NCBI GenBank assembly: GCA_905233825.1
Contig: CAJOFE010000007.1
Coordinates: 54,314 to 118,313, forward strand
Reading direction: 5' to 3'
Length of the DNA stretch: 64,000 nucleotides
Origin: an uncultured Prevotella sp.
GTDB lineage: Bacteria > Bacteroidota > Bacteroidia > Bacteroidales > Bacteroidaceae
Made by a program: the position numbers and the translations under genes. Positions 10,301 to 43,668 of this stretch are shown here, in pieces; the first letter of the stretch is position 1; each line of letters begins with the position of its first letter. Under the pieces are notes generated by a model, which saw only the letters and a list, made by a program, of their open reading frames with translations, did not search any database and was not told the DNA's origin.

Positions 10301-12033
10301 CGGTCGAGGCCCATCACCTTCAACAGCGTTGCACTCTTCAACTCCTTCTCAGGCAGATAAGAGAGGTAGGTGCCCGTTGTGTCGCTCTGGTATTTGATGT
10401 TCAGGCGGAACTTCTCTTTCTCCACCGACATGGCCAGATAGTACACGTTCTTCATCATCAGGTCCCAGTTACCCTGCGAAGGGTTGTTCGACGTATTCTT
10501 CAGCGCCTTCACGAACAGACAACGGTTGGTCTGCGTGATGTCGGTAGAGAACTCACCCACCTGATAGGTCTGTCCTCCGTAGGTATATTCAAAGGCTACG
10601 GCCAGCACCTGGTCGGTCTGCAGGCCTGTCTTCAGCGAGATATATCCCAGAGACGTGTTTAACGTGTATTCGCTTGGTGAGAGCAGGTATGCTGAGGCCA
10701 CCTTCTCATAATCCACGCCACCCGTCAGTCCGTTGATAGACTCTAACTGTACTGACACTTGGTCGATATCGCGAGAGTTAGCGTCGATGTTGGCCACCAG
10801 GGTTGAATAGACGTCGTTGGCCAGGTTGCCAGGCACCTGCATGCCCGTGGGGCTCCACATGGGATTCTTGATGACCTTGTTTTCGCCCAAGTCGGTGAAG
10901 GCCACGATGTTACGGGTGTTATTAGTGTTACTCGTCTTGTTGGTCACCCACACCTCCACGCGATTAATCTTGATGCCCGTCGTCAGGTTGGGCAACGTGC
11001 TCATGGCTCGGTCATACTGCTGACGGAAGAAGTGGCTTAGGAAAAAGTGACGGTTCTCCTCATAGTCGGCTGCGTCGATTTCGAATGGCGCTGTCGAGAC
11101 GCCATCCTTACTGGTCACGCTACCCGATGAGCTCTTCTTCTGCGACACTACTGTCTGCAGTTTCAGCTTGCCAAACTGCATGTCGGTATGAATGCCGAAG
11201 AGCGACGAGGCGCCGTGCACCAGCGAGTTATTCGAGGGAAACGACACGTTGCCGGCTTCCACCAGCTTGATGATCTCGTCTTCCTTGCCGTCGTACTTCA
11301 GCTTGATGTTCTTCGTGTCCCAATCGACGGTGGCATCGGTGTTGTAATTCAGGGTCATGTTCACCTTGTCGCCCACCTTGCCGGTAACATTCAGGTTGAT
11401 TTTCTCATCGAAATCGAAGCTCGTCGTCTTCCTGTTGCGGATGGGTAGCGAGGGGTTGTCGATGTCCTTCTTCGTAAGACCCATCTTCAGCTCGGCTGTT
11501 CCACGCGTCTGCACACGCACTCCACCCGGGCCAAAAATCTTCTCAGCCGGGCCGAGGTCGAAATGCATGTCGCTGAACGTGAACTTGTCCTCGCCCTTCG
11601 TCTTCACGTTTTCAGCATCCTTCTGACGGAAGAACTGCTGACGGGCGCGAATCTCGCTCCACTTCATATACTCCTCGGGCGTCATCATGATGGGCGTGTT
11701 CAGGTAGGAGTCGCCTATCTTCGAGCCGATATAATAGACGTTCAGCGAGTCATCATACTCCACCTTTTGCTTGATGTTATCAGGCATGCGCAGGTCGATG
11801 GCGCTAGAGTCGAGGTCAGCCACCTCCACAGGTGCCGTCGGCTGGATGCGCCAGCGAGCTGTGGGGATGGTGTCGGCAGTAGTAGTAAGTGATGAGTGGT
11901 AAGTGGTGAGTGGATTTCTCCTTTCACCCTTCACCACGCACCACTCACCTGTCAGCAAGATGCATAACAACAATAATATGTATGTGAACTGCTTCACGTT
12001 TCTTCTTTTCTCATGGCGACGAGCGCGTAGCAC
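4324..12033 (-). CDS. sprA: T9SS translocon / cell-surface protein SprA
   Basis: A 2,569-aa ORF with a signal-like segment KQFTYILLLLCILL. Size and composition (Asn/Tyr/Ser-rich beta-barrel) are typical of SprA. The start is GTG at 12033, or the in-frame GTG at 11997, which gives MKQFTYILL. Confidence 0.88.
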   Translation of the reverse strand: MLRARRHEKRRNVKQFTYILLLLCILLTGEWCVVKGERRNPLTTYHSSLTTTADTIPTARWRIQPTAPVEVADLDSSAIDLRMPDNIKQKVEYDDSLNVYYIGSKIGDSYLNTPIMMTPEEYMKWSEIRARQQFFRQKDAENVKTKGEDKFTFSDMHFDLGPAEKIFGPGGVRVQTRGTAELKMGLTKKDIDNPSLPIRNRKTTSFDFDEKINLNVTGKVGDKVNMTLNYNTDATVDWDTKNIKLKYDGKEDEIIKLVEAGNVSFPSNNSLVHGASSLFGIHTDMQFGKLKLQTVVSQKKSSSGSVTSKDGVSTAPFEIDAADYEENRHFFLSHFFRQQYDRAMSTLPNLTTGIKINRVEVWVTNKTSNTNNTRNIVAFTDLGENKVIKNPMWSPTGMQVPGNLANDVYSTLVANIDANSRDIDQVSVQLESINGLTGGVDYEKVASAYLLSPSEYTLNTSLGYISLKTGLQTDQVLAVAFEYTYGGQTYQVGEFSTDITQTNRCLFVKALKNTSNNPSQGNWDLMMKNVYYLAMSVEKEKFRLNIKYQSDTTGTYLSYLPEKELKSATLLKVMGLDRLDANMKPHSNGQFDFVPGYTISNGRIFLPSAEPFGDYLRNYLTQKGMGELADKYCFDQLYDSTKTVAKQNAEKDKFILTGQYKGTAANVIQLNGTNIPQGSVRVTAGGVELKEGTDYTVDYTAGEVTIINQSIADAKTPIQATFESDTDYGMQRKTMFGVNWEYDFTKNFSLGGTLLHLSEQALTTKVGMGEEPLNNTLWGLNLNWKQESQWLTRMLDRLPLLHLTQPSYITLTGEFAQLIAGKAHGTQDNASYIDDFENTKSLLDVGDPKAWVLSSVPSMFPEASDKEGVSSGYNRALLSWYNVDPIFTRRSSSLTPGHIKSDLEQLSNHYIREVYVRELYPNRDQSSYNGATSTLPVLNLSYYPQERGPYNLTLDYNADGTLKNPAQRWGGMMRRMDITTDFEQANIEYVEFWLLDPFIYTRQQGTASQYSGELYINLGEVSEDVLRDGKKFYESNMPVDGTSKFVDTQWGKIPVQSAENYAFATSSGSREKQDVGLNGLTDEEERTFGVYADWLSKIGSVVSNDSLLQAWRQDPAGDDYHYYRGSDFDDERKSILDRYRRINNPQGNSPSSDNQTESYDTSYKTGPDVEDINQDFTLNEYERYYQYRIPISDSELQAYNNGMKSEDSYIVDHRDYSAKLRNGETETVRWYQYRVPLQEWEKKVGAINDFTSIRFMRMFLTGFEHPITLRFGSLDLVRGEWRQYKQNLMTGAGAETGTLEMSAVNVEENTERQPVAYVLPPGISRVQDPNQQQLTEDNEQAMCLTVKNLSQNESKAVYKNTNLDLRQYKRLQMFVHANYLVPNATNLEDNQLAVFIRLGSDYKSNYYEYLIPLKVTPEGHYNWNVPSDRPIVWPEENMLDINLHVFTALKKARNKARSEGLASFTQLFSDYDPDKPNNRISIMGNPSLGEVKTMIIGVRNLSSSPKSGEVWVNELRLREANNDGGWAASGAMNVQLSDLGMVNMSGRYITDGFGGLEETVIQRSKETEKLYSITANVELGKLFPDKAQVSAPLYYSYTNESISPKYNPLDSDMELDDALESAFDKRERDSIESIAVTKEISRNFSLSNVRVGIKNKKNPMPYDPANFSFSYSHSHHNTSGETTIFENEDHWRGVLNYSYTPVYKTWEPFKKSKSKSKWMQLPMSLGLNYLPQSISFNSELTRAYYELQERDLENTEDPNLPLTFSEQFLWNRDFSLRWDLTKNLHMNFQSATHAEIEEPYTPINKDLYADHYQAWKDSVWQSVSHWGTPLDYRQSFSASYQVPIDKLPIFDWVKLDGKYDASYSWLRGTEMDDGTSLGNTIQNNRNMTVNGTINMETLYNHIPFLKKTNEYFKKAPQKKNDKKPTTRSRTQGASNKAGDKDGKDNKDGKDNKDSKDAKVLPKNKNSFQKEIVLVPDSVVEVQHGKKSKRLLVSARGKDGKIVQVKWKVVDENKIKVWYKAPNRPTPAPSLEVKEEDTSSTDSLSVQRDLTPPSQVGEGGESLSIMLSVTPKEPLDNQWWYNPAQQAARLLMMVRSVSFSYRNQRSMMLPGFMPNVGDMFGQRTGDILTPGLDFAFGLTGDNYVDKALDKGWLLCNESVATPSTSQQNEDFQLRATVEPFRDFKIDLTATRTQNRARSVQFMYAGQPTTYSGTFNMTTISIKSALEGMGNANNGYHSSAFERFREAIPEFRNRVQAQYPDPSNGGTVEAPTGATGGASVDPYSADVLIPAFLSTYTMGAGKSLAIFPALSRLLPNWTVKYAGLSKIPWLADHFKSVNLNHSYKSVYSVGSYASYSSWVQYMGDLGYVQAADGSYAPSSRFNISTVSINEQFSPLLGMDVTLQNNMTFKVEYKTTRVLNLSMTSVQLNETRSKDWVVGLGYKISNLNLFGSGSSRKVKGSKKGSKNDEEQSSNSRTSNRRSTGVNHDLNTRLDVSFRKEAAIIRDIATGVSSASSGNSALKISFAADYTLSRFLTLTAYYDRQTNNPLLSSSSYPTTTQDFGFSLKFSLTR

Positions 12034-29943: not shown

Positions 29944-30150
29944 TTTTTTGCTGATTTTTTGAACTTTTTTCTCAGTTTTTCTTCAAAAAAATGCGCTTTT
30001 AAACGCCAAAAACACCCATATCTGTCACTATTGTCACCATATCTGCACCTATCTATCTCATTGTCAGACAGCAGTTTACAGCGAGTCGTAACAGAAGTGC
30101 AGATTTTTTTTGAAAAAACTTTTAGAGTGCGCGCGTGCGCGCGCGAGGGA

Positions 30151-30262
30151 AAACAGGTGCCTCTTCCAAGCCCCAGAGATGCCGTTTCCAAGCCCTGAAG
30201 GTGCCGTTTCCAAGACATAAAGAAGGCACCTTTTTGTCCAAAAGAAGGCATCTTTTTTGTTT
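30151..30262. repeat. Five-unit array of the GATGCCGTTTCCAAGCC family
   Basis: It contains the exact 22-mer ccagagatgccgtttccaagcc (30173-30194), which is also present at 52402-52423. Confidence 0.8.
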
Positions 30263-30264
30263 TT

Positions 30265-30327
30265 GGACGTAGCTAAATCATTTTAGGACGGCGCTAAATT
30301 GATTTAGCACGGCGCTAATTTGCCTCT
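30265..30327 (+). promoter_or_regulatory. Three 21-bp direct repeats (GGACGNNGCTAAAT...), a candidate activator-binding array upstream of the pilus operon
   Basis: R1 is 30265-30285, R2 is 30286-30306 and R3 is 30307-30327. The GCTAAAT/ATTTAGC half-site occurs 5 times between 30272 and 30367. Confidence 0.45.
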
Positions 30328-30393
30328 TTTTTCGCCTGTGCAACAATGCAAATGTTAAAATTTAGCGAACATTTATACTTTTTCGCCGAAAAA

Positions 30394-30425
30394 TTTGTGG
30401 GTTTCAGAAAAAACATTTATATTTG
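30394..30425 (+). promoter_or_regulatory. Bacteroidota promoter: -33 TTTG (30394-30397) and -7 TATATTTG (30418-30425), with a 20-nt spacer
   Basis: Read directly. It lies 80 nt upstream of the ATG at 30505. Confidence 0.6.
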
Positions 30426-30504
30426 GCGCGTCTAATATATTACTTTGTACACGTACAACCTATTAAGTGTGAAATCTACATACCGATATAGAACTATCGT
30501 CTTC

Positions 30505-31074
30505 ATGGCGCTTCTCTTCTTGGCGCTTAGCTCCAGGGCACAGCAGGTGGCCCTGAAGACCAACATGCTCTATGATGCAGCCCTGATTCCCAATATCGGT
30601 GTGGAAATAGACCTCGGAAAACAATGGACGGCCAGCGCCGACGGTTTCTATACCTGGCTCTCGTCAGACCACCGTCATCGTTACTGGCAAGGCTATGGTA
30701 GCTATCTCACGCTACGACACTACTTCGGCACCACCACTCCCTTCTACGGAAAGGGATCTGGAAAAGGCTCCCACCACATAGGCGCCTATGCCCTGGGGCT
30801 CACCTATGACGTGGAATGGGGAGGACGAGGCTACCAAGCCGCCCATTTCGGCTTTGGAGGAGGCGTGGAATATGGCTATGCCCTGCCCATAGGTAGCAGG
30901 CTGATGCTCGACTGCTCGATAGGTGTGGGCTTCCAGGACGGAGAATACAAGGAGTATCTGCCTATGGACGGCCATTACGTTTGGCAGGCCACTCGCAAGC
31001 GCCACTGGTTCGGACCTACGAAGGCCGAGGTGTCATTGAAGTGGCTCTTGGGAAAGAAAGGAGGTGGCCGATGA
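30505..31074 (+). CDS. DUF3575-type small outer-membrane beta-barrel protein (pilus-locus associated)
   Basis: 189 aa counted from the ATG at 30505. It has a signal peptide MALLFLALSSRAQQ. The blocks ALKTNMLYDAALIPNIGVEI...GPTKAEVSLKWL match my recollection of DUF3575. Confidence 0.72.
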   Translation: MALLFLALSSRAQQVALKTNMLYDAALIPNIGVEIDLGKQWTASADGFYTWLSSDHRHRYWQGYGSYLTLRHYFGTTTPFYGKGSGKGSHHIGAYALGLTYDVEWGGRGYQAAHFGFGGGVEYGYALPIGSRLMLDCSIGVGFQDGEYKEYLPMDGHYVWQATRKRHWFGPTKAEVSLKWLLGKKGGGR

Positions 31075-32057
31075 AGATGTTCTGCGCCATCTGCCTGCTC
31101 TGTGTCCTCTCAGCATCCTGCGAATACAAGGACCTGTGCTACGACCACAACCACTGGGCCAACGTGCGCATCGTCTTCGACTGGCAACATGCGCCAGAGG
31201 CGATGACGAAGGCAACAACGGAGACGACAGGCGCAGGCATGACTGTACTCTTCTACGACGACGAGACGGCCACCAGCCAAGAGCCTGTGCGCTACGACCT
31301 GCCAGGCCGAGAGGGAGGCAACGTGCGCCTGTTGCCAGGCACCTACCAGGCCCTGTCCTATAACTATGATACTGAGACCATCCTCTATCGAGGCATGGAA
31401 CTCGAGAATACCCTCGAGGCCTACACCCGTCTGTCGAGCATAGGCGAAGGCACCATGATGAGCCGTACGGACATGCCACGTGCCAACAATACCGAGCAAG
31501 AGCCAGTCATCCTGGAGCCAGACCCGCTATGGGCGGCCACCAGCGAGACCTTTACGGTGAACATTGGCGACGAGACACGTACCGTGACCATGCAGCCACA
31601 GACACGCGTCTGCGAGATCACCATCACCATCCACAACGTGCCCAACCTGCAATACTCCAGTCAGTTCGGAGGCGCCCTGTCAGGACTGGCACCCTCAGTA
31701 TGGATGGCATCAGGGCAGATAGGAGAAGGCACAGCCACGCAGGCATTCTCAGCCAGCGCCATAGACCAGAACACGCTGGAGATGCACTTCCGCACCTTCG
31801 GCCATTGTCCACGTAGAGGCGAGGGCATCACCAATCCCCATATACTGACCATCTACGCCATCCTTGCCGATGGCTCGAAATGGTACTACACATACGATGT
31901 GAGCCAGCAGATGCACAACCCCAAGCAGAACCCTGACGACCATCACGTCTATATTGAACTGGACGACCTGCCTGTGCCCAAGCCCATAGTCAACGGCTCC
32001 GGCTTCCAGCCCACCATCGACGGCTGGCAGGGAGTGGAGATAGAAGTAGATATGTAG
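31071..32057 (+). CDS. Lipoprotein of the type V pilus anchor / DUF5119-like class
   Basis: 328 aa with lipobox LSASC. It shares an ATGA start/stop overlap with the upstream gene. The family call rests on position and the N-terminal pattern C-x-YKDLCYD...VRIVFDW. Confidence 0.5.
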   Translation: MKMFCAICLLCVLSASCEYKDLCYDHNHWANVRIVFDWQHAPEAMTKATTETTGAGMTVLFYDDETATSQEPVRYDLPGREGGNVRLLPGTYQALSYNYDTETILYRGMELENTLEAYTRLSSIGEGTMMSRTDMPRANNTEQEPVILEPDPLWAATSETFTVNIGDETRTVTMQPQTRVCEITITIHNVPNLQYSSQFGGALSGLAPSVWMASGQIGEGTATQAFSASAIDQNTLEMHFRTFGHCPRRGEGITNPHILTIYAILADGSKWYYTYDVSQQMHNPKQNPDDHHVYIELDDLPVPKPIVNGSGFQPTIDGWQGVEIEVDM

Positions 32058-32135
32058 AAAAATCATAAAAAGCTAAACAGTTTATATGAGAACAAACAAA
32101 CTTTTTTATTCGCCTTTTTAAAAACATTTACAATT

Positions 32136-33335
32136 ATGAGAAAAAATCTATTTATTCTGGCTGCAGCATTAGCAGTATGCTATTCTTGCAGCAATGACGA
32201 GACCGTAGAGGTCAATCTGGGGAATGAAATCAGCTTCAGGCCCATGGTAGAGAGAACGACTCGTGCAGCAGATGTAACGGAAAACAACCTTCAGAGCTTT
32301 AATGTTACTGCTGAATTAGAAGGTGACACTCCTTCCGAATATTTTAGTGATGTGACATTTACTGCTTCTGGAACGGTAAGCGCACAGAACCCATCAACAG
32401 GTGAAACCTATACCTCTGCAACGAAGTATTACTGGCCTTCTTCAGGTAATTTAAGTTTTTACGCTTATTCGCCAATAGATGGTGCGTCAAACCAAGTGGC
32501 CATGACTGATTACAAAACGTTTGTTGTTACTCCATCAACAACCATTGCCAGCCAGGTGGACTTTGTTTACGCAGGCACAACTGGAAAAAACAAAGAGAAT
32601 AATTCTGCTGGCGTCGCACTCAATTTCCGTCATACAGGCGCTAAGATTGTATGTCAGGTAAAGAACTCCTCTACAGCACTTAAGTTTGCTGTCGATGGAT
32701 GGAAAGTGGGATACTTGTCTCCCTCTGGTAAATTCACTTATGCTGCTGAATCAACCGATACTAAGAATTCTGTAACCCTTGCTTATGGACAGTGGAGTGA
32801 TTGGGGTACGCGTTCAGTAGATACTAAGTATGAATCTGCACTTTCTCAGGCAGTAACAATCGATGCTAAAACCGTGGAAAATAATACGGATAACGAACAC
32901 GTAACGCTTTTGGCAGGTGAGATGATTCTGGTGCCACAGCGCATCACTGCAGCAACAGCTTATGCAAATAGTAGTACACCCGCTGCTAACGACCCATTGA
33001 ATGGTTCTTTCATCGCTGTTAAGCTGAAGATTATGAATAATGATGCTAGCAGTACTGTTATTGCAGCAGGTGCTTCAGATGCCACCATCTGGGCAATCTG
33101 GCCTATTGGTGATGCTGCTAATGCTCAGGCAGCAGACCAGTTTAAATGGGAGCCTGGCAAGAAGTACACCTACACCATCGACCTCGCTGGTGGTGGATAC
33201 TATGAGACCAATCAAAATGAGACGACAGTTGATGAAGATTTAGACAAAATTCTTGATGGTGCAGAGATTAAGTTTGTCAACGTGACTGTCGATGATTGGA
33301 CTGATGCTACAGGAATTGATGTTACAATGCCTTAA
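32136..33335 (+). CDS. Fimbrillin-family (Mfa-like) type V pilin lipoprotein
   Basis: 399 aa. It has a lipobox-like AVCYSC, then NEISFRPMVERTTR|A, which is the Arg-protease maturation site pattern. Confidence 0.62.
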   Translation: MRKNLFILAAALAVCYSCSNDETVEVNLGNEISFRPMVERTTRAADVTENNLQSFNVTAELEGDTPSEYFSDVTFTASGTVSAQNPSTGETYTSATKYYWPSSGNLSFYAYSPIDGASNQVAMTDYKTFVVTPSTTIASQVDFVYAGTTGKNKENNSAGVALNFRHTGAKIVCQVKNSSTALKFAVDGWKVGYLSPSGKFTYAAESTDTKNSVTLAYGQWSDWGTRSVDTKYESALSQAVTIDAKTVENNTDNEHVTLLAGEMILVPQRITAATAYANSSTPAANDPLNGSFIAVKLKIMNNDASSTVIAAGASDATIWAIWPIGDAANAQAADQFKWEPGKKYTYTIDLAGGGYYETNQNETTVDEDLDKILDGAEIKFVNVTVDDWTDATGIDVTMP

Positions 33336-33371
33336 TAATGTCAAAAGGTATTAAACAATAACCTGAAGATA

Positions 33372-33402
33372 AGCTGGCAGGGGTTCGACTCCCCTGCTGG
33401 CT
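33372..33402 (+). other. 12-bp hairpin with a tRNA T-loop-like loop (GGGG-TTCGACT-CCCC) between the two pilin genes
   Basis: The sequence agctggcagggg ttcgact cccctgctggct is read directly. No T-run follows. Confidence 0.6.
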
Positions 33403-33408
33403 ACAAAG

Positions 33409-34443
33409 ATGAAAAAGACGATGAAACAGGCGAATAACGGCTTATGGTTGTTGCTTCTGTTTGTAGCCGGGCTGCAGACGGGGTGTACTGGCGACAGCAA
33501 TAGCGACATCGCGCCCAACGACAACGAAATCATACTTAAAGCCGACGTATGGCAGATGATGGAAGGCACTCGTGCCACCTTCTACGATGCCAGTTCGCTG
33601 GCCAGTGGTGGCAGTTTCACAGCTGCAGCCTACGTGGCAGAATCCACCACCCCATATATCAACCCCACACAGGTAAACTGGAACAGCACAACAAGCAAGT
33701 GGGAGTTCGCCGACGGCAAGCACTACTGGCCAGCCTCGGGCTCGCTCGACTTCTTCGCCTATATGCCTGCCACTCCACCATCTTACATCTCAGGCCCTAC
33801 ATATACTACGGCTCGCAGTCCACAGTTCACCTGCACCTTGCCGATGACCTACGAGTCGGCTTATACAGATGAAGAGTCAGTAGCTCATGATGCATCAGGC
33901 CAGACAGATGATGTGCAGGAGTTCGTCTGGGGAATGGCTGTTGGCCAGAATAAGGCTGGGCAGGGCCAGGACGGCGTCACTATGACATTCAGGCATCCCT
34001 TTGCCCGCATCAAGTTCATGTTGTCAGCAGAACATCCTGATATCACCATCAACAGCATCACGTTTAAGGGATTGAAGAGTGGTGGCACCTGCACGTTTGA
34101 CGTCTCGAATTCCACTTCCACATGGACATCGCTGACCCCTTCGGACAATACTACCGATTTCGTGATGACCTTGCATGGCACAGAGGCTGAGTTCACGAAG
34201 AATACTGAGTCAGCAACGCCAGCCAGGCCAATAGGCCCAGAAATCATCATGGTTCCCCAGACCTTTGCTGGCGACATCGAGGTAAACGCCACCTGGATAG
34301 ACTGGGGCGAACAGTTCGCACATAACGTCAGCACCAAGCTGTCTTCCGTCACCTGGCAGGCAGGCAACAGCTATACCTATACCTTCACCATCACAGAGAC
34401 AGACCTGAGGGTAGATACTGAAAAATTCACAGAGCAATGGTAA
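33409..34443 (+). CDS. Fimbrillin-family (Mfa-like) type V pilin lipoprotein, second paralog
   Basis: 344 aa with lipobox LQTGC, then IILKADVWQMMEGTR|A. Confidence 0.58.
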   Translation: MKKTMKQANNGLWLLLLFVAGLQTGCTGDSNSDIAPNDNEIILKADVWQMMEGTRATFYDASSLASGGSFTAAAYVAESTTPYINPTQVNWNSTTSKWEFADGKHYWPASGSLDFFAYMPATPPSYISGPTYTTARSPQFTCTLPMTYESAYTDEESVAHDASGQTDDVQEFVWGMAVGQNKAGQGQDGVTMTFRHPFARIKFMLSAEHPDITINSITFKGLKSGGTCTFDVSNSTSTWTSLTPSDNTTDFVMTLHGTEAEFTKNTESATPARPIGPEIIMVPQTFAGDIEVNATWIDWGEQFAHNVSTKLSSVTWQAGNSYTYTFTITETDLRVDTEKFTEQW

Positions 34444-37400
34444 CTATAAAACGAAACATATACATATCATTCCTAACAATGCTCCTGCTGATGGTGGGAG
34501 GCGCAAATCAGGCGTGGGCATACAAGGTGACATACCATATACTGACGATGCCGTTCACGACAGAAGACAAAAACGGAGAACAGGGTTACAAACCCACCAC
34601 CAACCCCAATCGACAGAACATCCGTGTGGAAGCTTTCTACGTTGAAGTCGAAGAGACTTCGCCAACCGTTGGACTTCCCTCGCAATACATCAGTCCACTG
34701 GCCCACAAGTTCAGATATTATGAAGGTACTACTACAAGCGAAAGTGGCAAGGTTTCTACGAGTGCGTCAAGAGTGCAGATTTATGAATACAATAATACCA
34801 CCTACTACACCTATACGATCAATGGCACAACTAATAATGCTAACGTTTCTGGTGCTGACGACTATCCTACTGGCTATCAGGAGGATCCTACACTCTTGGA
34901 CTCATATACAGGTCCCTTGTTGAAACCTGGTAGTGCCATTACAGAGGATTGCCATATCTACGTCACTTACGAATATAATGCTGCGAACACCGTTCTCGAC
35001 CTGACAGGTAACAAAAGCTACAACATCAGGTTAGGTGACCGTTTTCTTGCTTTTAACAAAACACGTGCCAATCGTCCTGCTGCCATTCTTGAAAACAATG
35101 TAACGGAAGAAAACCTCAATAGCAATGACTTCACTTATGTAGCTACTCCTGGATTCAATAGCAACCAGCACCACTGGTTCCATTTCCGTTTCAAGTTTAA
35201 AGGTCCCGAGCCTAATACACACGACCCTTACAACATCACCATCCTCACAGCCTACGAGGGCGATGAAACATTTTTCTCGGACACTAATAAGAATTTGGGT
35301 GAAAAGACGATTGTGCGGAAAACGTACAAAGACAGTCATCTCTTCTGTAAGGGCCATGATAAAGGTAGCAATAACATGTGGTTGTCGAGTGATTACGACA
35401 TGCAGTTCACCCAAACTAACAAAGATGGTCCAGTGACCTGGATATCTCAACCTGGCTATTATCGTGGCGGTGTAAACAATACTAGCGAGATGAGCCCCAT
35501 CTGGAACTCGTTTGCCATCCTGCCTGCTGCTGGTGGTGGTAGTGGCTACGTATTTATGGGCACAAAAATCAACGGCAACGGCAACAACTGGCAGCCAAAA
35601 AATGGTCAGTATTTCTTCCTGACAGGAAACGTCGAAAATGGTAACAACCCGAAATTACAATTAAAGACGCACAGCGGTGCTGAGTCAACCCCTGAAGAGC
35701 CCTACGAAGTGCGCACATACACCTATAAGGTAAAAACGCCACTATCGGACACCCCATTAGAGGCCACCATCGATATGACAGAATTTAAAGGTTCTGCCAC
35801 GTTGCTTACTCACGTTCCCGACAAACTAAAGCGCAAATATGTTACATTTACGGGAGCTTATAAATCAGAGTTATATACAGATGCAAATGCCATCACTACG
35901 TTTGATGATGCCGAAGCCAGTGGACGCGTAATCTGGCTAACGTATGAGTCGTCGGAAATGCCTTTCGAGACGCTTCCTAAAGACGGCAGTTATGAGGATG
36001 CCCGCTGGTACACCATACGTATGAATGGTGGTACGGAGAACAAGAATTTAGCCTATCACAATACAAACAACTTCATTACGGCAAATGGCAGTGGCACGCC
36101 CAAAGGCAGTAATAGTGATTTGCATCAGGGCGAGAACTCGGCTGAAGCAATGGTTGCCTTTATCGGCGACCCCTTCGAACTGAAGATTATCAGTCGTAAA
36201 GCCAGTGAGACAGACAATGCCAACCGCTATATCGGTTGTGCCACAGATGCAGCTAACAATACAACGCTTAATACCAACAAGACTGGTTCTTCCGACATCA
36301 GTAGTTGGGAGATTGTAGCTGATAATGAAGATGGCTCAATGGTACTGCGCCAAATGGGTACATACGATTCGCCTAAGTATATTGGCTGGAACTCTGGCGC
36401 TACCAACAAGCCTGTTGTCTATAGCACAAGTGCCTACACTACTGCCAACCGTATCAAGGTGGTGGCGTTGGACCAGAAAAAGTATCTCTATCATATTGTT
36501 CGGAGCGATGGTTCTATTGCAGTAGAGGCCAGCACCATGCAGGATGTAGGTCAGCCCCTGAACAAATACACCCATATTCCGGAAATCATACGTACGCCGT
36601 TCCTCAATCCGGCTCTTGGCTATTTACCCACCATCTCCTTCTATTATACAAAAACAAATGCTGATGCGTCATCCTCTGCTCAAAACCATGCACCGTATGA
36701 GCAGGAAGCTGGTACTTCTGATGGGGTTTTTGCTAATATCTACGTGCGATATAGTTTTGGCAGAGCCTTACCATCAAAAAACTATAATGTCCGACTGAAC
36801 CGTGAGTACATCTATTATGATTCCTCAAATGAAGATGCTTCGAAAATCAGTTCTCAGACTTCAGACCCCCCATCATCTGAAAGTGATGATCCAAATAAGG
36901 ACAATTACTCATGGTATCTGGACTTGTCTGATCCTTATGCCATGACTATCAAGAATGTGGGATACGACGTAAACGGCAAATATGTGAATGTATCATCATG
37001 GACAGATGGGGCTGTATTAGATTGGAGTGATGACACACCGTCTAAGTTCGTTGTAAAAAGCAGTACATCGCCAGGCGTATATGAAGTGATGGCTGCAACA
37101 GGAGAGGGTGTGAATGCCGCCACTACCTACTATAACATCGGACGCAATACGGCCAACACCGTAAGAATGTACAGCAACAGCACATACCATCATGGTGATG
37201 ACCAATTGCGCTTTGTGCTTACTGAAACAAATGCCACACCAGTTGATTACCACTTGATAGACAAAGAGAATCATGAACTGATGGTGGTAAGGAGCCGACG
37301 AAGCGACTTGACCTTCCCTGCCGACTATCACAGCCCGTTGGTAGAGACGTATCACTACTGGACAGACCGTGCTTGCAGTGTGGCAGTGAGTAACTGGGGA

Positions 37401-40400
37401 GATCAAGAACATGAAAATTTAACTCCTATAGAAGGTGTCAAACATATTTACGTTACTTATGACACCAGCAATCGTATAAATCTGAGAAAGGGCGCTTTGT
37501 ATCTACTCAAATTTAGGAATGGCGACAGCTTCCGTCAGGAGAACGGTGCTGACGGACTGACGACTAATGCCGTGCCAGCCGTTTATCCCTATTGCAACGG
37601 TGACTGCAACTTCTTTATCTATGGCGAAGACGAGTATGAACTGCAACAACATGGTGCTGCCAGTACCCGTACCCGCTGGGCATGGTATTTAGAGAGTACC
37701 AACAACGATCCCTACCACGTGAAGATATGTTCACGACAAGAGGAAACCTACAATACCTATCAGCGCCAAGCCTACTTCTATACCTTTGTTAAAGACTGGG
37801 GAGAGGGCGACAAGGTGGTTACGAGTTTAGCATGGCCAGGCATTACTGGCGTGCAGGGAACAGAGTATATGGTATTGGGGTCTGTAGGACAATACCAGTT
37901 GGTAACTTCTCCCGTTGATAAGAATGGCGATGGCGATTACGATGATGCTGATGAACGAGTGTACCATACGGTAAAGTCGTTCGAGCAATATTGGAAGACC
38001 TACGACACTATCAAAAATAAACTGCTGAAAGACATTCTGGAGGATGATGATAAGGGGACCAATCCTGAGGGTTCCTCGACAGTTCCTACTGATCCTGTAG
38101 CTTACAGAGAATTGCTGACAGACACGTACGGTTTCCATAGCTATCCCTACTATGCTTACGCCAAACGTTTCAACGGCTATAATAGTGAAGGTAAGGCCAG
38201 CAAAGGATGGGAAGAAATAGAACACTGGTATCAGACCGTTAACATGGGCGAGGGATACTTCGACTTCGTGCCAACTGTTATCGCTCCCGTGCTCATCCTG
38301 CTCGACCAGCATGGCTGGGAGATCATGCGTAAGCCTCTGCCCAGCGGGCCAGATGATAAGGAGAAGACTCAAAAGTATAAAGCTATTATGCAATATAACA
38401 GCCCGATGGTGAAGGAATATTCCTTCTGGGCTGGTGCGAAGAAGCGTACTGGCTTCCATCAGTATTACGATTTGAGCAAGCGTGTGGGTGGCGATGATTT
38501 CACGTCAAGTAGTTTGGACAATCTACCACCGTATGGTTCTGCCAACGTGCTCGATGCAAAGGGGAACCTGCAAGACCAGTATGTCACCTACACCGTGAAG
38601 GAAGAGTATGTACAGAGTTACAGCTACGATGCCACTACAGGTATTGGTACTGGCCAGCCGTTCCTCATCCAGCAAGGCGAGAGTTTTGCCTTTACGGGTG
38701 GTTCTGCAATTGCTACCTATACCGTGCCATCATCCGGCGGCATGTCAAAATGGATTGTTGAAAATATCAGTGCCCCGATAGATAACGGCTATCTCTGGTA
38801 TCTGAAGCCAAATGTCAACATTGACACTGAAATGGGTTATGGCGGCTATGCCCATGACTGGGTCAACGACTATGATGACAAAGACAAGGTCAAGACCTCG
38901 GGTTTCAACTCATGGGCTTTTGACCCCTATAACATCCAGATATCGAGTGCTGCAGATCCTTCCAGGTATTTTGTTACTAATGCTACTGGGGCCACTTTGG
39001 AAGAAGGAGATGGAGCCATCTTGGGCACGTATGCGAATGATGACAATCCAGCAATATCATTAGGAGCACAAAGAACAAATGTAAGGGGCACATGGTATGA
39101 CAGTCGTACGCTCTATGTCACTAATGCAACCTTCATGGCAGTGCAGGATGCAGATGGCAACATGCAACTAATGCCACGCTTTGACCAGTCGCGACGTATC
39201 AGGAGTTTTAGTACGTTGGTCACACCGACGGCTGATGCTGGCGACCCCACCAAACTGACGCAAACACATACGAAAATTTATCGTCCGATTGTCTATAACT
39301 ACCACATCATCGACAATGCTGGTAATGAGTCATTGCGCTACAAGAGTGGTGGTGACCTCGTACCACAGACCCCAGATCACTTCAAGAGCCCACTGGCGAA
39401 AGACTTCACCTATTACAAGACGCTGACAGATGGAGTCGTTTCTGACGAAATAACTGAGTCTCTCGCAGGTGTTGGGTTAAACTCTACAGCTGCCGCTGGC
39501 AACGATGTCTATGTGCGCTATGCCTACGATGAACATGCAGATGTCATGGACATTCTGAAAGGCAAGTGGTTTACCATGAAGTTGAACACAAAGGATACCA
39601 AGTACGACGACGGCATCAAACAGGGAACCAGCAAGCCAGCTGTAATCGACGGTGATGATAAGGAGTGGCAGTGGAAGTTTTTAGAGACGCCGCTGAGCGA
39701 CCCTGACCCTTATGCTGTTCAATTGTTCAACCGCGATTATAACGAGACGAGACAAAACGAGCCCTTACTAAATACCCGCTTTGCCTTGCTGTCGCATGCC
39801 AGCGATGGCTATGCCTTGGCAAAAGCAGGAAGGGGCGATTATACCTATCAGTTCCTTAACGGCAGTGGAATGAACGCCTCTACGCCTGCCACTATAGCAG
39901 AAGACAAAGATGGCAGTAACGCTTCTGGTTTTACGAGCACTTCATGCACTTTCCATGGTACAGACTCGCAAATAGAACTGTTCGACGATGTGCTTCACAC
40001 CTATATTTATAAGGTATATACTTACGACAATGTTCCAGCCATAGAGGCCGAGCAGTCACAGGGTGAAGCCTTAGACAATGAACTTATCCCCGTACTGCCT
40101 GATGCCGCAAAGTCACCGCTACTAAACATGGAAGACTTCCGTTATTATTATAATAACGATATGTTTACCAGCGGAGCTATTGTGACTGTGACAGAACCAA
40201 TACATGAACAGTTCCCTGAATTGGCAGTAGGTCAGGTCATTCCCGACACGATAGGCAAGCAACTTAAATATATATATGGCCTGTACGATGACGTGATTCA
40301 CGTACACTACATGCCCTATAATCCCAATAACTCCAGCTATCTTGTACCCAATGTCAAGGGTATAGAAGATGGGCATGTAGCTCGTGGCTCTGGCTCACAC

Positions 40401-43400
40401 GATGCAGCATTAGGACTTGATGGCAACCTGCTTTATAACATCATTTGGTATAATGACAACATGATGTTTAAGGATGGAAATGACGTCAAAGGAAAGCAGG
40501 GACAGGTCTTGACAGCCACACCAACCTCATACGTGTGGACATTAGAAGGCAACGACCCCTACGCCATCAAGATTAAAAACTATGATGGCACTAACGATTA
40601 CATTAACAGTAGTGGTGGAATATCATCTGAAGCCCAGACGTTCATGCTGATTCCTTGGGAAGGCTATGGATATGGCGTATTGGCTAAGACTGGAGATAAA
40701 ACCAAAAAGCTGACGATGGATACTGATGATAGCGTCTCTACAACAGATGAGTCGGTCAGCGTTGCAACAACTAATAGCCCTACGAAGTTTATCTTCTTCG
40801 GATTGGCTACCCATAAGTTGATTTATCACTTGGTGATTGCAAAGACCTATTATGATGATGCCGAGAGTCACGGAGCAGACGAGACAGAAACTATTCCTTA
40901 TTGGAATGGAACTGAAATCACAAACATACCCATCAAGGGTTCTACCCAGCGCGATCTGACATCGGATAATGGCGGTGAGGGGGCACTGCCTGGTGAGAAG
41001 TACCAACTTGGTTCTACTATTAACGGCCAGACCTACTCCTACGATGCCGGAATCATCAGTTTGGGTGACAAGTTAGAAGTTCCTTCGGTATTCTATCGTC
41101 CTAACGTTGTCTATCAATACTTCGTGGAGGGGGTATATGACGATGAAACCTGTACATCACGCACCATAGACATGAATACCAAGTATAAAGGACGTGAAGT
41201 GACGAATTTGGGTGATGACCCTGGCTTGCTAAATAAGACTGTGCGCATTAACATCGTTTACAGTTTCAATGGTAGTCTTGAAACGAATGCTGGTGCAGAC
41301 TTCGTGAGAAGCGTGGATCAAAACAAATGGTACACCTTTGAGGCGAAAAAGGCTGATGGCACACCGCAACTGATGCAATTCACCAATGCGTGGGGCATGG
41401 AGGTAAAGGAAGGACGAGGTACCCACTATACCAACGACTACCTGTGGACTCCCCTCGGCGACCCCTACGGCTTCGTGATGTATCACCGCTATACTTGTGT
41501 GAATAGTGGTACTGATAATACAGGTGAGCCAGATCGAGTGATGACAACAGCTGGTTTTTCGGAAGGGCGAGAGGTTTGGATGGATGATGGCTCCGGGACT
41601 GGTGCTAATAGGGTTTCTAATGCAACAGATGCTAAAACCGCAGCTGCTAATTCTATCTATGAACTGCTTGCTGATGAAGGAACCGAGCCTGGTTACTTCA
41701 AGATTCATCCTGTTGCTAACAATTCGGGCACACAGTATTATTTGAAGATTGTTCATGATAAAGAATCCCCTTCTTCGGAAGTATGGCATGACTATGTGAG
41801 GCTCAGTGCAACGGGGCATACTGAATTTACATATGGACTGACAGAGGAACTGTTGAAACCCTACTACGACCGTGCTGGTTATGTGGGCGGACTGACGGCG
41901 GCAGGCAAGACGGCCTATGAAGCTGCCAATGGTAACCTGATGACCCTACAGAGCGTAGTCTACGACCCTCGCAATATCGTCAAGTATGAGCCTGGCTACT
42001 ACCGTCTACACTCACCAGAGGACATTGAGGTTGACGGAACACCTCTCTTGCCCGTGCGCTATGCCAGCGGCTATACGCACAAGATTGAGCTTGATCCCGA
42101 TGGGAACGGAGACAATGTCGATGCCCTCCCCATGCACTTCTATGAGGTAGAGGGAGCATCGTCGGCCTTCAACTTGTTGAAGAGCAAAGACGGCGTAAGT
42201 AGAGATGTGGGCTATACTCCGTCACATGCAACACAAGGCGACATACCCATCCCGGCCGTGGAATACGACCCCGCGAGCATCTTCTATTTCTATGAGGGTT
42301 CCGCTGATTATCCAATATCACGAATCCAGACACAAGGACTCTATCTCAAAGGAAGCAAGGGGCCAGGTGCCACAGAGGATGTCGATGAGAGAGCAAAAGT
42401 CATCATGATAGATACGGAGAATCCAGCAACTAACGCTACTCCTTTGTATGTGATGGATATCGGTGGCGCTATCCTGTTGATACACGACAATCAAACCGAC
42501 AATAGTCGAGTAAATCTGAAATATCTTAGTTACGACCAGAATGATCCCGACCATATCTACGACCTCAAGTTGACGCATAATACCCATACAGACCACGCGA
42601 AGTGGCTGATGCAGCCTGCTAATCACTTAGGACTGCGTGTCACCACCCACAGTGGCGGCGACGGCGGCACGTATGGTGGTACCACTTACAACTATACCAC
42701 ATTCTATGCACCGTTTGATGCCTTGCTGCCTGACACAGTTATGAAGGATGGACAAATTGAAACAATATACCATGCAGTTGTTCTTGAAACAGCGAACTCG
42801 CCATGGAGTCCACCAAATGACTTGCATCCCAAGTCTATCGGACGTTATAACATTGCAGACAATGGTTTAACCTCACTTAAAGATGGTGAACGTGAACTCT
42901 GTCTCACCAACGACAGGTTCATACCTGCAGGAACGCCAGTACTCATTGCTATGCATGATAATGCCGGATACGTCAAGTTAACACTACCCAACTCATCGCC
43001 ACATCCCATGCATTCAACTTTCACAGCAGACACACGACGGAAACCTGGCGATGAAAATAAGGATACTAAAGGAGAACGTACCAACATCCTCACCGGTCAA
43101 TACCTGGAGCAGAAGTTGTCTCTCAGTTCAACAGAGAGAATTTATGCATTCGGACTGCCATATAGTGGCACTATGACGCTTGACAAATCAACGGGCTATA
43201 TCACAGCAACACTGCCGTTGCAGGACAATTCTGGTATGGGATTCTACCTTAATGCCAACCCTGATAAAGAATTAGGTCTATCACGTGGCGACTGGTTGCG
43301 TAACAACTGGTACGTATATAATAATAAGGCATACTACCATGCCACAGGAGTCAACCCATCTCGTGAAAAACCTGGTATTGACTTTATTCCCGTCATCTTC

Positions 43401-43580
43401 GATGATGAAGATGAAGAACCTGGTATAGAGGAGAATGGTGGAACAGCCGACTATCCAACGGGCATCTACGACCTGCTGGGCCGCAAGGTAGCGACGGAGC
43501 AGCAGGTGAAGGACGGGACGTGGCACGAACGGCTGGCTCCTGGCATCTATATCATGAACGGGAAGAAGTTCAGCTGGTAA
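34437..43580 (+). CDS. Giant (3,047 aa) secreted repeat protein with a T9SS type-A C-terminal sorting domain; candidate pilus-associated adhesin
   Basis: An uninterrupted 9.1-kb ORF overlapping the upstream stop (ATGGTAA). It has a Sec signal ...GGANQAWA|Y, about 8 two-part repeats, and the C-terminus GIYDLLGRKV...LAPGIYIMNGKKFSW. Confidence 0.85.
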   Translation: MVTIKRNIYISFLTMLLLMVGGANQAWAYKVTYHILTMPFTTEDKNGEQGYKPTTNPNRQNIRVEAFYVEVEETSPTVGLPSQYISPLAHKFRYYEGTTTSESGKVSTSASRVQIYEYNNTTYYTYTINGTTNNANVSGADDYPTGYQEDPTLLDSYTGPLLKPGSAITEDCHIYVTYEYNAANTVLDLTGNKSYNIRLGDRFLAFNKTRANRPAAILENNVTEENLNSNDFTYVATPGFNSNQHHWFHFRFKFKGPEPNTHDPYNITILTAYEGDETFFSDTNKNLGEKTIVRKTYKDSHLFCKGHDKGSNNMWLSSDYDMQFTQTNKDGPVTWISQPGYYRGGVNNTSEMSPIWNSFAILPAAGGGSGYVFMGTKINGNGNNWQPKNGQYFFLTGNVENGNNPKLQLKTHSGAESTPEEPYEVRTYTYKVKTPLSDTPLEATIDMTEFKGSATLLTHVPDKLKRKYVTFTGAYKSELYTDANAITTFDDAEASGRVIWLTYESSEMPFETLPKDGSYEDARWYTIRMNGGTENKNLAYHNTNNFITANGSGTPKGSNSDLHQGENSAEAMVAFIGDPFELKIISRKASETDNANRYIGCATDAANNTTLNTNKTGSSDISSWEIVADNEDGSMVLRQMGTYDSPKYIGWNSGATNKPVVYSTSAYTTANRIKVVALDQKKYLYHIVRSDGSIAVEASTMQDVGQPLNKYTHIPEIIRTPFLNPALGYLPTISFYYTKTNADASSSAQNHAPYEQEAGTSDGVFANIYVRYSFGRALPSKNYNVRLNREYIYYDSSNEDASKISSQTSDPPSSESDDPNKDNYSWYLDLSDPYAMTIKNVGYDVNGKYVNVSSWTDGAVLDWSDDTPSKFVVKSSTSPGVYEVMAATGEGVNAATTYYNIGRNTANTVRMYSNSTYHHGDDQLRFVLTETNATPVDYHLIDKENHELMVVRSRRSDLTFPADYHSPLVETYHYWTDRACSVAVSNWGDQEHENLTPIEGVKHIYVTYDTSNRINLRKGALYLLKFRNGDSFRQENGADGLTTNAVPAVYPYCNGDCNFFIYGEDEYELQQHGAASTRTRWAWYLESTNNDPYHVKICSRQEETYNTYQRQAYFYTFVKDWGEGDKVVTSLAWPGITGVQGTEYMVLGSVGQYQLVTSPVDKNGDGDYDDADERVYHTVKSFEQYWKTYDTIKNKLLKDILEDDDKGTNPEGSSTVPTDPVAYRELLTDTYGFHSYPYYAYAKRFNGYNSEGKASKGWEEIEHWYQTVNMGEGYFDFVPTVIAPVLILLDQHGWEIMRKPLPSGPDDKEKTQKYKAIMQYNSPMVKEYSFWAGAKKRTGFHQYYDLSKRVGGDDFTSSSLDNLPPYGSANVLDAKGNLQDQYVTYTVKEEYVQSYSYDATTGIGTGQPFLIQQGESFAFTGGSAIATYTVPSSGGMSKWIVENISAPIDNGYLWYLKPNVNIDTEMGYGGYAHDWVNDYDDKDKVKTSGFNSWAFDPYNIQISSAADPSRYFVTNATGATLEEGDGAILGTYANDDNPAISLGAQRTNVRGTWYDSRTLYVTNATFMAVQDADGNMQLMPRFDQSRRIRSFSTLVTPTADAGDPTKLTQTHTKIYRPIVYNYHIIDNAGNESLRYKSGGDLVPQTPDHFKSPLAKDFTYYKTLTDGVVSDEITESLAGVGLNSTAAAGNDVYVRYAYDEHADVMDILKGKWFTMKLNTKDTKYDDGIKQGTSKPAVIDGDDKEWQWKFLETPLSDPDPYAVQLFNRDYNETRQNEPLLNTRFALLSHASDGYALAKAGRGDYTYQFLNGSGMNASTPATIAEDKDGSNASGFTSTSCTFHGTDSQIELFDDVLHTYIYKVYTYDNVPAIEAEQSQGEALDNELIPVLPDAAKSPLLNMEDFRYYYNNDMFTSGAIVTVTEPIHEQFPELAVGQVIPDTIGKQLKYIYGLYDDVIHVHYMPYNPNNSSYLVPNVKGIEDGHVARGSGSHDAALGLDGNLLYNIIWYNDNMMFKDGNDVKGKQGQVLTATPTSYVWTLEGNDPYAIKIKNYDGTNDYINSSGGISSEAQTFMLIPWEGYGYGVLAKTGDKTKKLTMDTDDSVSTTDESVSVATTNSPTKFIFFGLATHKLIYHLVIAKTYYDDAESHGADETETIPYWNGTEITNIPIKGSTQRDLTSDNGGEGALPGEKYQLGSTINGQTYSYDAGIISLGDKLEVPSVFYRPNVVYQYFVEGVYDDETCTSRTIDMNTKYKGREVTNLGDDPGLLNKTVRINIVYSFNGSLETNAGADFVRSVDQNKWYTFEAKKADGTPQLMQFTNAWGMEVKEGRGTHYTNDYLWTPLGDPYGFVMYHRYTCVNSGTDNTGEPDRVMTTAGFSEGREVWMDDGSGTGANRVSNATDAKTAAANSIYELLADEGTEPGYFKIHPVANNSGTQYYLKIVHDKESPSSEVWHDYVRLSATGHTEFTYGLTEELLKPYYDRAGYVGGLTAAGKTAYEAANGNLMTLQSVVYDPRNIVKYEPGYYRLHSPEDIEVDGTPLLPVRYASGYTHKIELDPDGNGDNVDALPMHFYEVEGASSAFNLLKSKDGVSRDVGYTPSHATQGDIPIPAVEYDPASIFYFYEGSADYPISRIQTQGLYLKGSKGPGATEDVDERAKVIMIDTENPATNATPLYVMDIGGAILLIHDNQTDNSRVNLKYLSYDQNDPDHIYDLKLTHNTHTDHAKWLMQPANHLGLRVTTHSGGDGGTYGGTTYNYTTFYAPFDALLPDTVMKDGQIETIYHAVVLETANSPWSPPNDLHPKSIGRYNIADNGLTSLKDGERELCLTNDRFIPAGTPVLIAMHDNAGYVKLTLPNSSPHPMHSTFTADTRRKPGDENKDTKGERTNILTGQYLEQKLSLSSTERIYAFGLPYSGTMTLDKSTGYITATLPLQDNSGMGFYLNANPDKELGLSRGDWLRNNWYVYNNKAYYHATGVNPSREKPGIDFIPVIFDDEDEEPGIEENGGTADYPTGIYDLLGRKVATEQQVKDGTWHERLAPGIYIMNGKKFSW

Positions 43581-43610
43581 GCCGCTGCCCCTGATATAAC
43601 GTAAGCATAG

Positions 43611-43648
43611 AAGAAGCCCCGATGACCGCTAAATCATCGGGGCTTCTT
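43611..43648. terminator. Bidirectional terminator between the giant gene and acd
   Basis: A 15-bp perfect stem pairs aagaagccccgatga with tcatcggggcttctt. Confidence 0.8.
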
Positions 43649-43668
43649 GATTAATTGCTTCAGCATTA

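Follow-up and report, generated by a model that had tools for sequence, protein, structure and literature searches.

A giant Prevotella protein with a short T9SS-type C-terminal tail is encoded beside a dedicated pilin-like lipoprotein

The 64,000-nucleotide stretch of uncultured Prevotella DNA analyzed here, called the window below, carries a compact cluster of five same-strand genes whose last member encodes a protein of 3,047 amino acids (aa), which we refer to as the giant. Upstream of it lie the genes for a DUF3575 protein, a DUF5119 lipoprotein, and two fimbrillin-like lipoproteins, designated fimbrillins A and B. The five open reading frames (ORFs), at 30445/30505-31074, 31071-32057, 32136-33335, 33409-34443, and 34437-43580, are those of an initial annotation of this DNA, as are two overlaps: ATGA at 31071-31074, where the DUF3575 stop codon meets the DUF5119 start, is read directly in the sequence, and the 7-nt ATGGTAA at 34437-34443, between fimbrillin B and the giant, follows from the ORF coordinates. 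The fimbrillin B gene is translationally coupled to the gene of the giant. An open frame of 3,047 codons has a chance probability of (61/64)^3047, about 1e-64, and is therefore real. The features of the cluster, including the parts of the giant that are discussed below, are the following.

30469..31074, forward strand: DUF3575 protein with a Sec signal, predicted to be a small outer-membrane beta-barrel (PF12099, 3.8e-36; N-terminal sequence)
31071..32057, forward strand: DUF5119 lipoprotein, Cys17, in the anchor position of the cluster (PF17145, 2.4e-49)
32136..33335, forward strand: fimbrillin A, 399 aa, lipobox Cys18, Arg43 in TR↓A (PF13149, 3.2e-20)
33409..34443, forward strand: fimbrillin B, 344 aa, lipobox Cys26, Arg55 in TR↓A (PF13149, 1.3e-20)
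34437..34520, forward strand: Sec signal peptide of the giant (signal peptidase I type), aa 1-28, ...ANQAWA↓YKV (sequence; kept in homologues)
34527..41642, forward strand: about eight very divergent modules of the giant, 260-400 aa each, aa 31-2402 (motif list, hhalign)
37554..38636, forward strand: most conserved core of the giant, aa ~1040-1400 (conservation profile, superfamily search)
41643..43382, forward strand: C-terminal region of the giant, aa 2403-2982, a beta-trefoil-like fold and a last beta-rich domain, ...GFY.NAN...NK.YY (AlphaFold2, Foldseek)
43383..43460, forward strand: hydrophobic strand FIPVIF, aa 2983-2988, and acidic disordered linker, aa 2989-3008 (family C-termini)
43461..43580, forward strand: short type IX secretion system (T9SS)-type C-terminal signal, aa 3009-3047, and stop codon (sub-threshold Por_Secre_tail matches, family conservation)

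The assignment of the four upstream genes to type V pilus families is supported by their sequences. Their products had been described as a DUF3575-type barrel, a DUF5119-like lipoprotein, and two fimbrillin-like lipoproteins, and all of the corresponding Pfam matches exceed the gathering scores; for Mfa_like_1 (PF13149), fimbrillins A and B reach 73.7 and 74.9 bits, respectively, against a cut-off of 27. The two fimbrillins are homologous to each other (hhalign, 99.9%). The lipobox followed by a TR↓A site, proposed earlier as a maturation pattern, is present in both, with 25 aa between Cys18 and Arg43 in fimbrillin A and 29 aa between Cys26 and Arg55 in fimbrillin B, and both predicted cleavage sites fall at the start of the Pfam domain. 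The lipoboxes in the window are slightly atypical (YSC and TGC) and are preceded by hydrophobic signal sequences. Fimbrillin A has a C-terminal extension of 46 aa past the last strand that it shares with fimbrillin B, compared to 13 aa in fimbrillin B (hhalign), and is a candidate stalk pilin. The DUF5119 lipoprotein has no TRA-type Arg site and matches weakly the uncharacterized structure 5CAG in the PDB (3.9e-6); single-sequence PDB searches with both fimbrillins and the DUF3575 protein gave nothing meaningful. For the DUF3575 gene, the start at ATG 30505 given by the initial annotation has to be revised: translation probably begins at GTG 30469 or TTG 30445, since a charged n-region (MKSTYRYRTIVF...) is present in the longer forms only and the orthologues are 216-218 aa long. 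DUF3575 orthologues are found upstream of the cluster in many loci.

The giant itself matches no family in Pfam or NCBIfam, either as a whole or as 500-aa slices, and a 66-sequence profile of its family finds no PDB chain at E ≤ 1. In Pfam, NCBIfam, and PDB sequences it thus corresponds to no well-characterized enzyme or adhesin family. Five homologues (P0018, P0059, P0067, P0074, and P0094) carry a precomputed PF26689.1 assignment; a local Pfam rescan of P0018, P0059, and P0074 returned none (E ≤ 10). The N-terminus is, as proposed, a Sec-type signal without a lipobox, ...GGANQAWA↓YKV, for which homologues keep ...NEAWA↓(Y)KVTYHILT. The repeat unit postulated earlier does lie outside the named families, and it needs a qualification: self-BLAST finds no repeats at E < 1, and the modules are revealed by profile-profile comparison. 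The motif W.W....DPY..I recurs at aa 263, 578, 832, 1091, 1496, 1757, 2040, and 2342, with a spacing of 250-400 aa, and module profiles match each other in hhalign with probabilities up to 99.1%.

Conservation along the giant is lowest at the N-terminus and peaks in the core at aa ~1040-1400, where column identity rises to 0.85-0.88 and the signature strings CNGDCNFF, STRTRWAW, SFEQYWKT, and LLDQHGWE.MRKPLP are found. We modeled the core and the C-terminal region with AlphaFold2 on shallow alignments of 26 rows. The core model (aa 1001-1500) has a predicted local distance difference test score (pLDDT) of 77, and Foldseek returned no neighbor for it in the PDB or among viral structures (BFVD), with the reduced sensitivity expected of a multi-domain query of 500 aa. 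The C-terminal model has structural relatives: botulinum HA17 is matched with a Foldseek probability of 1.0 and a target template-modeling score of 0.62-0.65, and the other matches include fascin, Amaranthus agglutinin, clitocypin, FGF, and MIR. This region is accordingly modeled as a lectin-type beta-trefoil-like fold, and a faint RicinB_lectin_2 match occurs in the protein P0178. The giant had also been said to have no DxSxS string of the metal ion-dependent adhesion site (MIDAS) type. Taken literally this is incorrect, since D.S.S occurs three times (aa 743, 2097, and 2104); the strings fall in unconserved or gappy columns, however, and there is no vWA match, so the substance of the statement holds.

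The best-defined motif of the protein across 61 homologues is formed by its last ~39 residues, which contain IYDLLGRKV (motif B), PGIYI (motif D), and NGKKFSW (motif E). The consensus reads [VI]-Y-D-[LIM]-x-G-R-[KC]-V-A ... D-G-[ST]-W ... P-G-[IV]-Y-I-x-N-G-[KR]-K; the residues Y, G, and R are present in 61/61 aligned homologues, G, Y, and I in 60/61, and K in 57/61. This tail had been called a canonical type-A C-terminal sorting domain (CTD), which it is not, as it scores 18.3 bits with TIGR04183 (cut-off, 23) and 14-15 bits (14.4-15.2) with PF18962 (cut-off, 27), and the hidden Markov model (HMM) matches are partial, covering model positions ~19-61 only. In the AlphaFold2 model, a disordered stretch at aa ~2940-3006 (pLDDT mostly 26-34) ends in the acidic linker, after which comes a mini-domain with three short strands and a pair of short helices.

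Short CTDs have been described in Prevotella intermedia, where they were found in 48 of 80 predicted T9SS cargo proteins; they fold into a three-stranded sheet whose first loop may include a helix, share the motifs B, D, and E, and have a PT/GI motif at which the CTD is cleaved, and cleavage and glycosylation of such cargo were observed by mass spectrometry (PMC11969387). The signal of the giant resembles these CTDs (Ye et al. 2025, PMC11969387) in its length of ~40 aa, in its motifs B (Y..G plus a basic residue), D (GxYI), and E (basic), in the flexible linker that precedes it, and in its predicted three-stranded sheet; PGI and PTGI in the linker resemble the PT/GI cleavage motif. It differs from them in a B-to-D spacing of ~16 aa, which is in the long-CTD range and is filled by a conserved insert, EQV.DG(S/T)W. 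The motifs stand at the extreme C-terminus of the protein, after a flexible linker and in a small predicted three-stranded fold, in a protein that has a Sec signal and is encoded in the same window as SprA:

4324..12033, reverse strand: sprA/sov, T9SS translocon gene (SprA_N, 7.9e-228)

The presence of sprA, reported earlier and confirmed by this match, means that the source genome has a T9SS. Two further CTD cargos had been proposed in the window, at 1-450 and 47663-50668. Similar short tails are indeed present, although neither matches any HMM. The second is an M60-like (enhancin-type) peptidase of 1,001 aa whose short CTD-like tail (...IYSISGQRTMLKHAKPGLYIINGKKIIK) resembles that of the giant, and because this tail is missed by the HMMs, short-tail cargo is probably under-counted by the standard CTD models. 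T9SS sorting of the giant is plausible, and it is a reasonable reading because the tail matches the short-CTD class, the linker contains PGI and PTGI, the M60-like peptidase has a tail of the same type, and SprA is encoded in the window. A tail with some other role, as a C-terminal motif shared among Bacteroidales in a protein that is periplasmic or reaches the surface by another route, seems to us very improbable. It would account for the sub-threshold and partial HMM matches, for the M60-like and ORF1 (1-450) tails that match nothing, and for a tail model of low-to-moderate confidence; it would leave three invariant CTD motifs at the extreme C-terminus after a disordered linker, their fit to an experimentally validated class, and the retention across the superfamily of tails of different CTD subtypes to be explained otherwise.

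Just before the linker, the strand FIPVIF (43383-43400) has two invariant residues, P2985 and F2988, and is modeled as disordered. An equivalent strand, x-F-x-F-D/E, is found throughout the superfamily right after the last folded domain. We considered FIPVIF as a donor strand for a pilin groove and downgraded the idea, since a strand that is superfamily-wide precedes a T/P-G-I-like motif; the stretch probably combines the final strand of the preceding domain with the CTD cleavage region, a partner-binding strand being the less likely alternative.

A gene for a pilin-like partner accompanies the giant almost without exception, and the possibility that homologues are encoded away from pilin genes can be set aside for the class of about 3 thousand aa (~3 kaa). 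Among genomes and contigs, an orthologue of fimbrillin B is directly upstream on the same strand in 13/13 distinct loci that have upstream DNA. The 80 metagenome loci include 59 of this class, of which 48 are informative, with at least 1 kb of upstream DNA; the partner is upstream on the same strand in 47/48, adjacent or overlapping in 35/47 and at a distance of 0.95-3.2 kb from the giant in the remaining 12. The outer flanking genes vary between loci, so that partner and giant together appear as the conserved unit. The partner is also recognizable by its own C-terminus. Fimbrillin B ends in ...EKFTEQW-COOH (nt 34426-34440), and its orthologues end in T/A/V-E-Q-W/M in every case. In the loci fetched for a survey of C-termini plus the window, which hold 784 ORFs of at least 150 aa, an [ED]Q[WM] end occurs in 20, and 20/20 are the partner of a giant. 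Partner orthologues keep the lipobox, L-[AT]-[GAS]-C, and have R or K at the cleavage position in 13/14 cases.

The inserts that we scanned between partner and giant are mostly AAA-ATPase_like/PDDEXK_9 genes (L005 8374-9945; L046 5401-6969; L053 5744-7018; L060 3791-7028, with two copies; L062 4987-6582). As the same position is occupied in several lineages, the gap between the two genes is suggested to be a recurrent insertion site of a selfish or accessory gene.

The rest of the cluster is linked less tightly. Among 28 metagenome loci whose upstream DNA spans 5 kb or more, ~18 have DUF3575, DUF5119, and fimbrillin A genes upstream, and where this block is missing, housekeeping genes or a gene for an extracytoplasmic function (ECF) sigma factor are found upstream instead. 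The description of the giant as the last gene of a pilus operon therefore goes too far: one fimbrillin is a near-invariant neighbor, and a considerable minority of loci lack the other three genes in the 7 kb upstream. As judged from gene content, the block is frequent and dispensable in cis. In one locus of the clade with a two-gene module (L011, 5565-6668), an ECF sigma factor gene and an unannotated ORF of 159 aa lie just upstream of the partner and are possibly a dedicated regulator pair.

The family to which the giant belongs is large. There are at least 328 close homologues of 2.7-3.2 kaa, full-length and 41-69% identical, from metagenome-assembled genomes of Prevotella sp., Prevotellaceae, and Paludibacteraceae, largely from rumen samples; every named one is a "hypothetical protein." When 1.84 billion representative proteins were searched with the core, 171 clusters were retrieved, including 133 at E ≤ 1e-30. 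All are unnamed and come from rumen or gut Bacteroidales; most are large proteins of 2.4-7.95 kaa (shorter matches may be fragments), usually with one matched core stretch per protein. Among the long and distant members, 54 end in CTD-like tails of several subtypes, and the core marks a superfamily of giant, probably T9SS-exported proteins. The largest has 7,954 aa, and in some members GNVYGGGN-type beta-helix-like repeats form the C-terminus in place of the CTD-like tail. Tandem giants also occur, with 4,076+ aa followed by 7,954 aa in L019 (1-31865) and 3,785 aa followed by 3,875+ aa in L021 (3363-22720).

Pilus-type genes recur around distant members as well. Giants of 4.9-6.4 kaa that share 39-50% identity in the core only have, directly downstream, a gene for a lipoprotein of 566-661 aa ending in T-[ED]-Q-W, in 4/7 informative loci. 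Such giants sit among DUF3575, DUF5119, and Mfa_like_1 genes, the last with TRA(G/A) sites, and a gene for a lipoprotein of ~1,100 aa. The DUF3575 proteins of these loci are called at 508-542 aa (L018 192-1754; L025 326-1954; L002 1-1528), compared to 189-218 aa here, and as called would carry a large extra region.

Core, TEQW-ended partner, and CTD tail are co-conserved across the superfamily, and for this reason we suspect, as a hypothesis, that the C-terminal strand of the partner docks at the core. The same conservation could be read as that of a new catalytic domain. The giant would then be an enzyme or a toxin-like effector, directed, for example, at plant or host glycans or at other cells, with its modules and trefoil binding the substrate and the pilin-like partner only positioning it. 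We regard this as improbable. The core is conserved far above the rest of the protein, with invariant D, E, H, C, W, and R (in DQHGWE, CNGDCNFF, and STRTRW), is usually single-copy among the 171 clusters, and is without a structural neighbor, and the nearby T9SS-tailed proteins of the window are hydrolase-like (M60), all of which would suit an enzyme; no catalytic family, on the other hand, was detected by Pfam, NCBIfam, the PDB profile search, or Foldseek, and the conservation of the core is equally explicable as that of a docking surface for an equally conserved partner.

The gene families, their linkage, the conserved motifs, and the absence of a known enzyme or adhesin domain are direct observations. 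The interpretation that we favor, with slightly better than even confidence, is that the giant is a T9SS-exported adhesin docked by a dedicated type V pilin, in an arrangement analogous, not homologous, to that of Mfa5 of Porphyromonas gingivalis; T9SS export, physical docking, adhesive function, and polymerization of the system into a pilus we infer. In outline, the DUF5119 protein and fimbrillins A and B would reach the surface as lipoproteins by the type V pilus route, and the fimbrillins would be matured by cleavage after the conserved Arg/Lys. The giant would be exported by Sec and then pass the outer membrane through the T9SS by means of its ~39-aa short CTD, which is expected to be removed, and would be held on the surface by its dedicated partner, fimbrillin B. 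It would there present a string of about eight divergent beta-rich modules, the conserved core, and the beta-trefoil-like, lectin-type region. In loci that have DUF3575, DUF5119, and fimbrillin A, the giant may be borne by a short Mfa-like fimbria in which fimbrillin B serves as adaptor or tip pilin; in loci that lack them, the giant may be tethered by fimbrillin B alone.

Several observations weigh against this interpretation. The tail is below the thresholds of both curated models, TIGR04183 and PF18962, and the model of aa 2403-3047, with a pLDDT of 67, is of moderate confidence. Three distant giants are without a pilin gene nearby, with one further locus cut off; L010, L011, L013, and ~8 of the 28 metagenome loci whose upstream DNA spans 5 kb or more lack DUF3575, DUF5119, and fimbrillin A there; and no anchor of the Mfa2/FimB family was detected, the DUF5119 protein having no Mfa2 match in Pfam and no match in NCBIfam. 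A core column identity of up to 0.88 is more than an adhesin usually shows and may point to an enzyme. Finally, T9SS cargo is normally anchored to lipopolysaccharide (LPS) or glycan, which would make a pilin tether unnecessary.

In another explanation, the giant behaves like other CTD cargo, as a T9SS surface fibril or adhesin that the PorU sortase pathway links to LPS or glycan, and fimbrillin B is no pilus subunit but a dedicated accessory factor, in the outer membrane or at the surface, for its export, folding, or release, with no polymeric pilus involved. SprB sets a precedent for a giant T9SS adhesin with dedicated neighbor genes, its partners being SprF/PorP-like. The minimal conserved unit here consists of two genes only, the short-CTD cargo of P. 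intermedia is glycan-linked at its C-terminus (PMC11969387), and PG1881 (PMC11225709) offers a precedent for a pilin-fold lipoprotein with a non-pilus role. The partner nevertheless retains the features of pilin maturation (a lipobox and the conserved R/K site) and is clearly homologous to fimbrillin A, and DUF3575, DUF5119, and Mfa-like genes recur around both close and distant giants; we consider this explanation unlikely, if a serious competitor to docking by a type V pilin.

A bolder extension of the docking interpretation is that these loci represent a widespread class of hybrid surface organelle of rumen and gut Bacteroidales, in which T9SS giants of 2.7-8 kaa with a core of ~500 aa are caught on the cell by a dedicated type V pilin through strand complementation with its invariant C-terminal strand (...F/Y-T-E/D-Q-W), the core being the likeliest acceptor and its pilin-acceptor fold new. 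We put this forward tentatively, as rather doubtful in so specific a form. If true, the protease-driven strand-exchange chemistry of type V pili would mount cargo from a different secretion system.

Type V pili count as one of the principal surface appendages in Bacteroidales, and little is known about their ligands or the joining of non-pilin components to them. To our knowledge, Mfa5 of P. gingivalis is the only T9SS-delivered pilus component that has been studied, and its mode of incorporation is still unknown. The cluster of the giant resembles the Mfa1-Mfa5 system in having lipoprotein pilins with Arg-type maturation sites and, as the last gene, one whose product is not a lipoprotein and carries a Sec signal as well as a T9SS signal at its C-terminus, and the pair of fimbrillin B and giant can be likened to Mfa3/Mfa4 and Mfa5. 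Mfa5 requires its CTD and PorU for incorporation, has no donor strand, and is thought to be part of the tip complex (PMC8512630, PMC13655056). The giant differs from it in being ~2.5 times larger, in having neither a vWA domain nor a conserved MIDAS motif, in its short rather than full CTD, and in having only one dedicated partner pilin, which ends in T-E-Q-W; the locus differs from that of Mfa in the added DUF3575 and DUF5119 genes and in having no recognizable Mfa2. The giant is an unannotated protein outside the Mfa5 family, with no vWA match and no detectable similarity to Mfa5; the set of PDB chains among which its family profile had no match at E ≤ 1 is assumed to include the Mfa5 structure (PMC7835359).

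Two further systems provide comparisons. In the type V tip pilins of Bacteroides that have C-terminal lectin or ligand-binding domains (PMC12632263), a lectin-type module is likewise combined with a pilin scaffold, as the beta-trefoil-like fold of the giant may be here; there, however, the binding domain is fused to the lipoprotein pilin, whereas here it would belong to a separate polypeptide of 3,047 aa with a different predicted export route. The giant is also comparable to a second group of large surface proteins in its size, repetitiveness, predicted Sec/T9SS export, and dedicated neighbor gene. These are SprB and RemA of Flavobacterium johnsoniae, very large and repetitive proteins exported by Sec and T9SS, which are encoded beside dedicated accessory genes, have type-B CTDs and PorP/SprF-like partners, and function in gliding motility. 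The tail of the giant, in contrast, is type-A-like and short, and its partner is a pilin-fold lipoprotein; no PorP/SprF gene was found among the scanned flanking genes of the window.

We found no published description of the giant family or of its pairing with a pilin. That a giant almost always lies beside one dedicated pilin-like lipoprotein, in ~60 related loci, suggests a widespread and undescribed way of mounting huge adhesins on Bacteroidales cells. The pairing of T9SS cargo with a type V pilin would then be no oddity of P. gingivalis, as it recurs in rumen Prevotellaceae, Bacteroidaceae, and Paludibacteraceae, and its recognizable signature (TEQW-ended partner pilin, conserved core, and short CTD) gives a handle on the coupling of two export systems. 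The giants are probably the largest adhesins of dominant rumen bacteria and as such would be relevant to attachment to plant fiber or host surfaces.

Outside the cluster, the window is ordinary chromosome, with genes for MTHFR, holB, flotillin, sprA, ruvA, a UvrD-like helicase, ksgA, nrdD, a PBP4-type peptidase, an acyl-CoA dehydrogenase with electron transfer flavoprotein, and a SusC/D pair. The gene next after that of the M60-like peptidase (50678-52360) encodes a protein with two GDSL-lipase domains. Two non-coding features belong to the cluster.

29944..30468, forward strand: upstream intergenic region, probably regulatory (repeat families D1, D4, D5, and D7; inverted repeats I1 and I5)
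33372..33402, forward strand: 12-bp GC-rich perfect hairpin, tRNA T-arm-like, between the fimbrillin genes (folding)

The ~560 bp before the cluster (29944-30504) are crowded with direct repeats at a spacing of 21-22 bp, including AGGTGCC(G/T)(T/C)TTCCAAG three times and GGACG.(C/A)GCTAAAT twice, the latter with a 15-nt palindrome, and they also contain an alternating GCGCGCGTGCGCGCGCG run; from its sequence the region looks like an array of regulator-binding sites. A scan for sigma-70 promoters and terminators was uninformative, with counts near the shuffled expectation; promoters of Bacteroidetes differ. TATATTTG at ~30417-30424 fits TAnnTTTG, which we take to be the consensus of the Bacteroides -7 promoter motif, and is a putative promoter.

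The hairpin at 33372-33402 resembles the T-arm and acceptor end of a tRNA (GGGGTTCGACTCCCC...). A tRNA remnant and a conserved attenuator were both considered for it and rejected, since ARAGORN reports no tRNA gene and the hairpin is not kept in related loci. It ends 6 nt before the start codon of fimbrillin B, has no T-run, and lies in an 80-nt stretch (33333-33412) with a folding energy of -28.2 kcal/mol (z = -4.84), a value that 0/200 shuffled sequences equaled. The G+C content is 0.46-0.49 over 32000-44000, which contains both fimbrillin genes and the giant, compared to mostly 0.50-0.56 elsewhere in the window and 0.53 in the DUF3575/DUF5119 part; the low value could reflect a foreign origin or the T/N/Y/D-rich composition of the encoded proteins.

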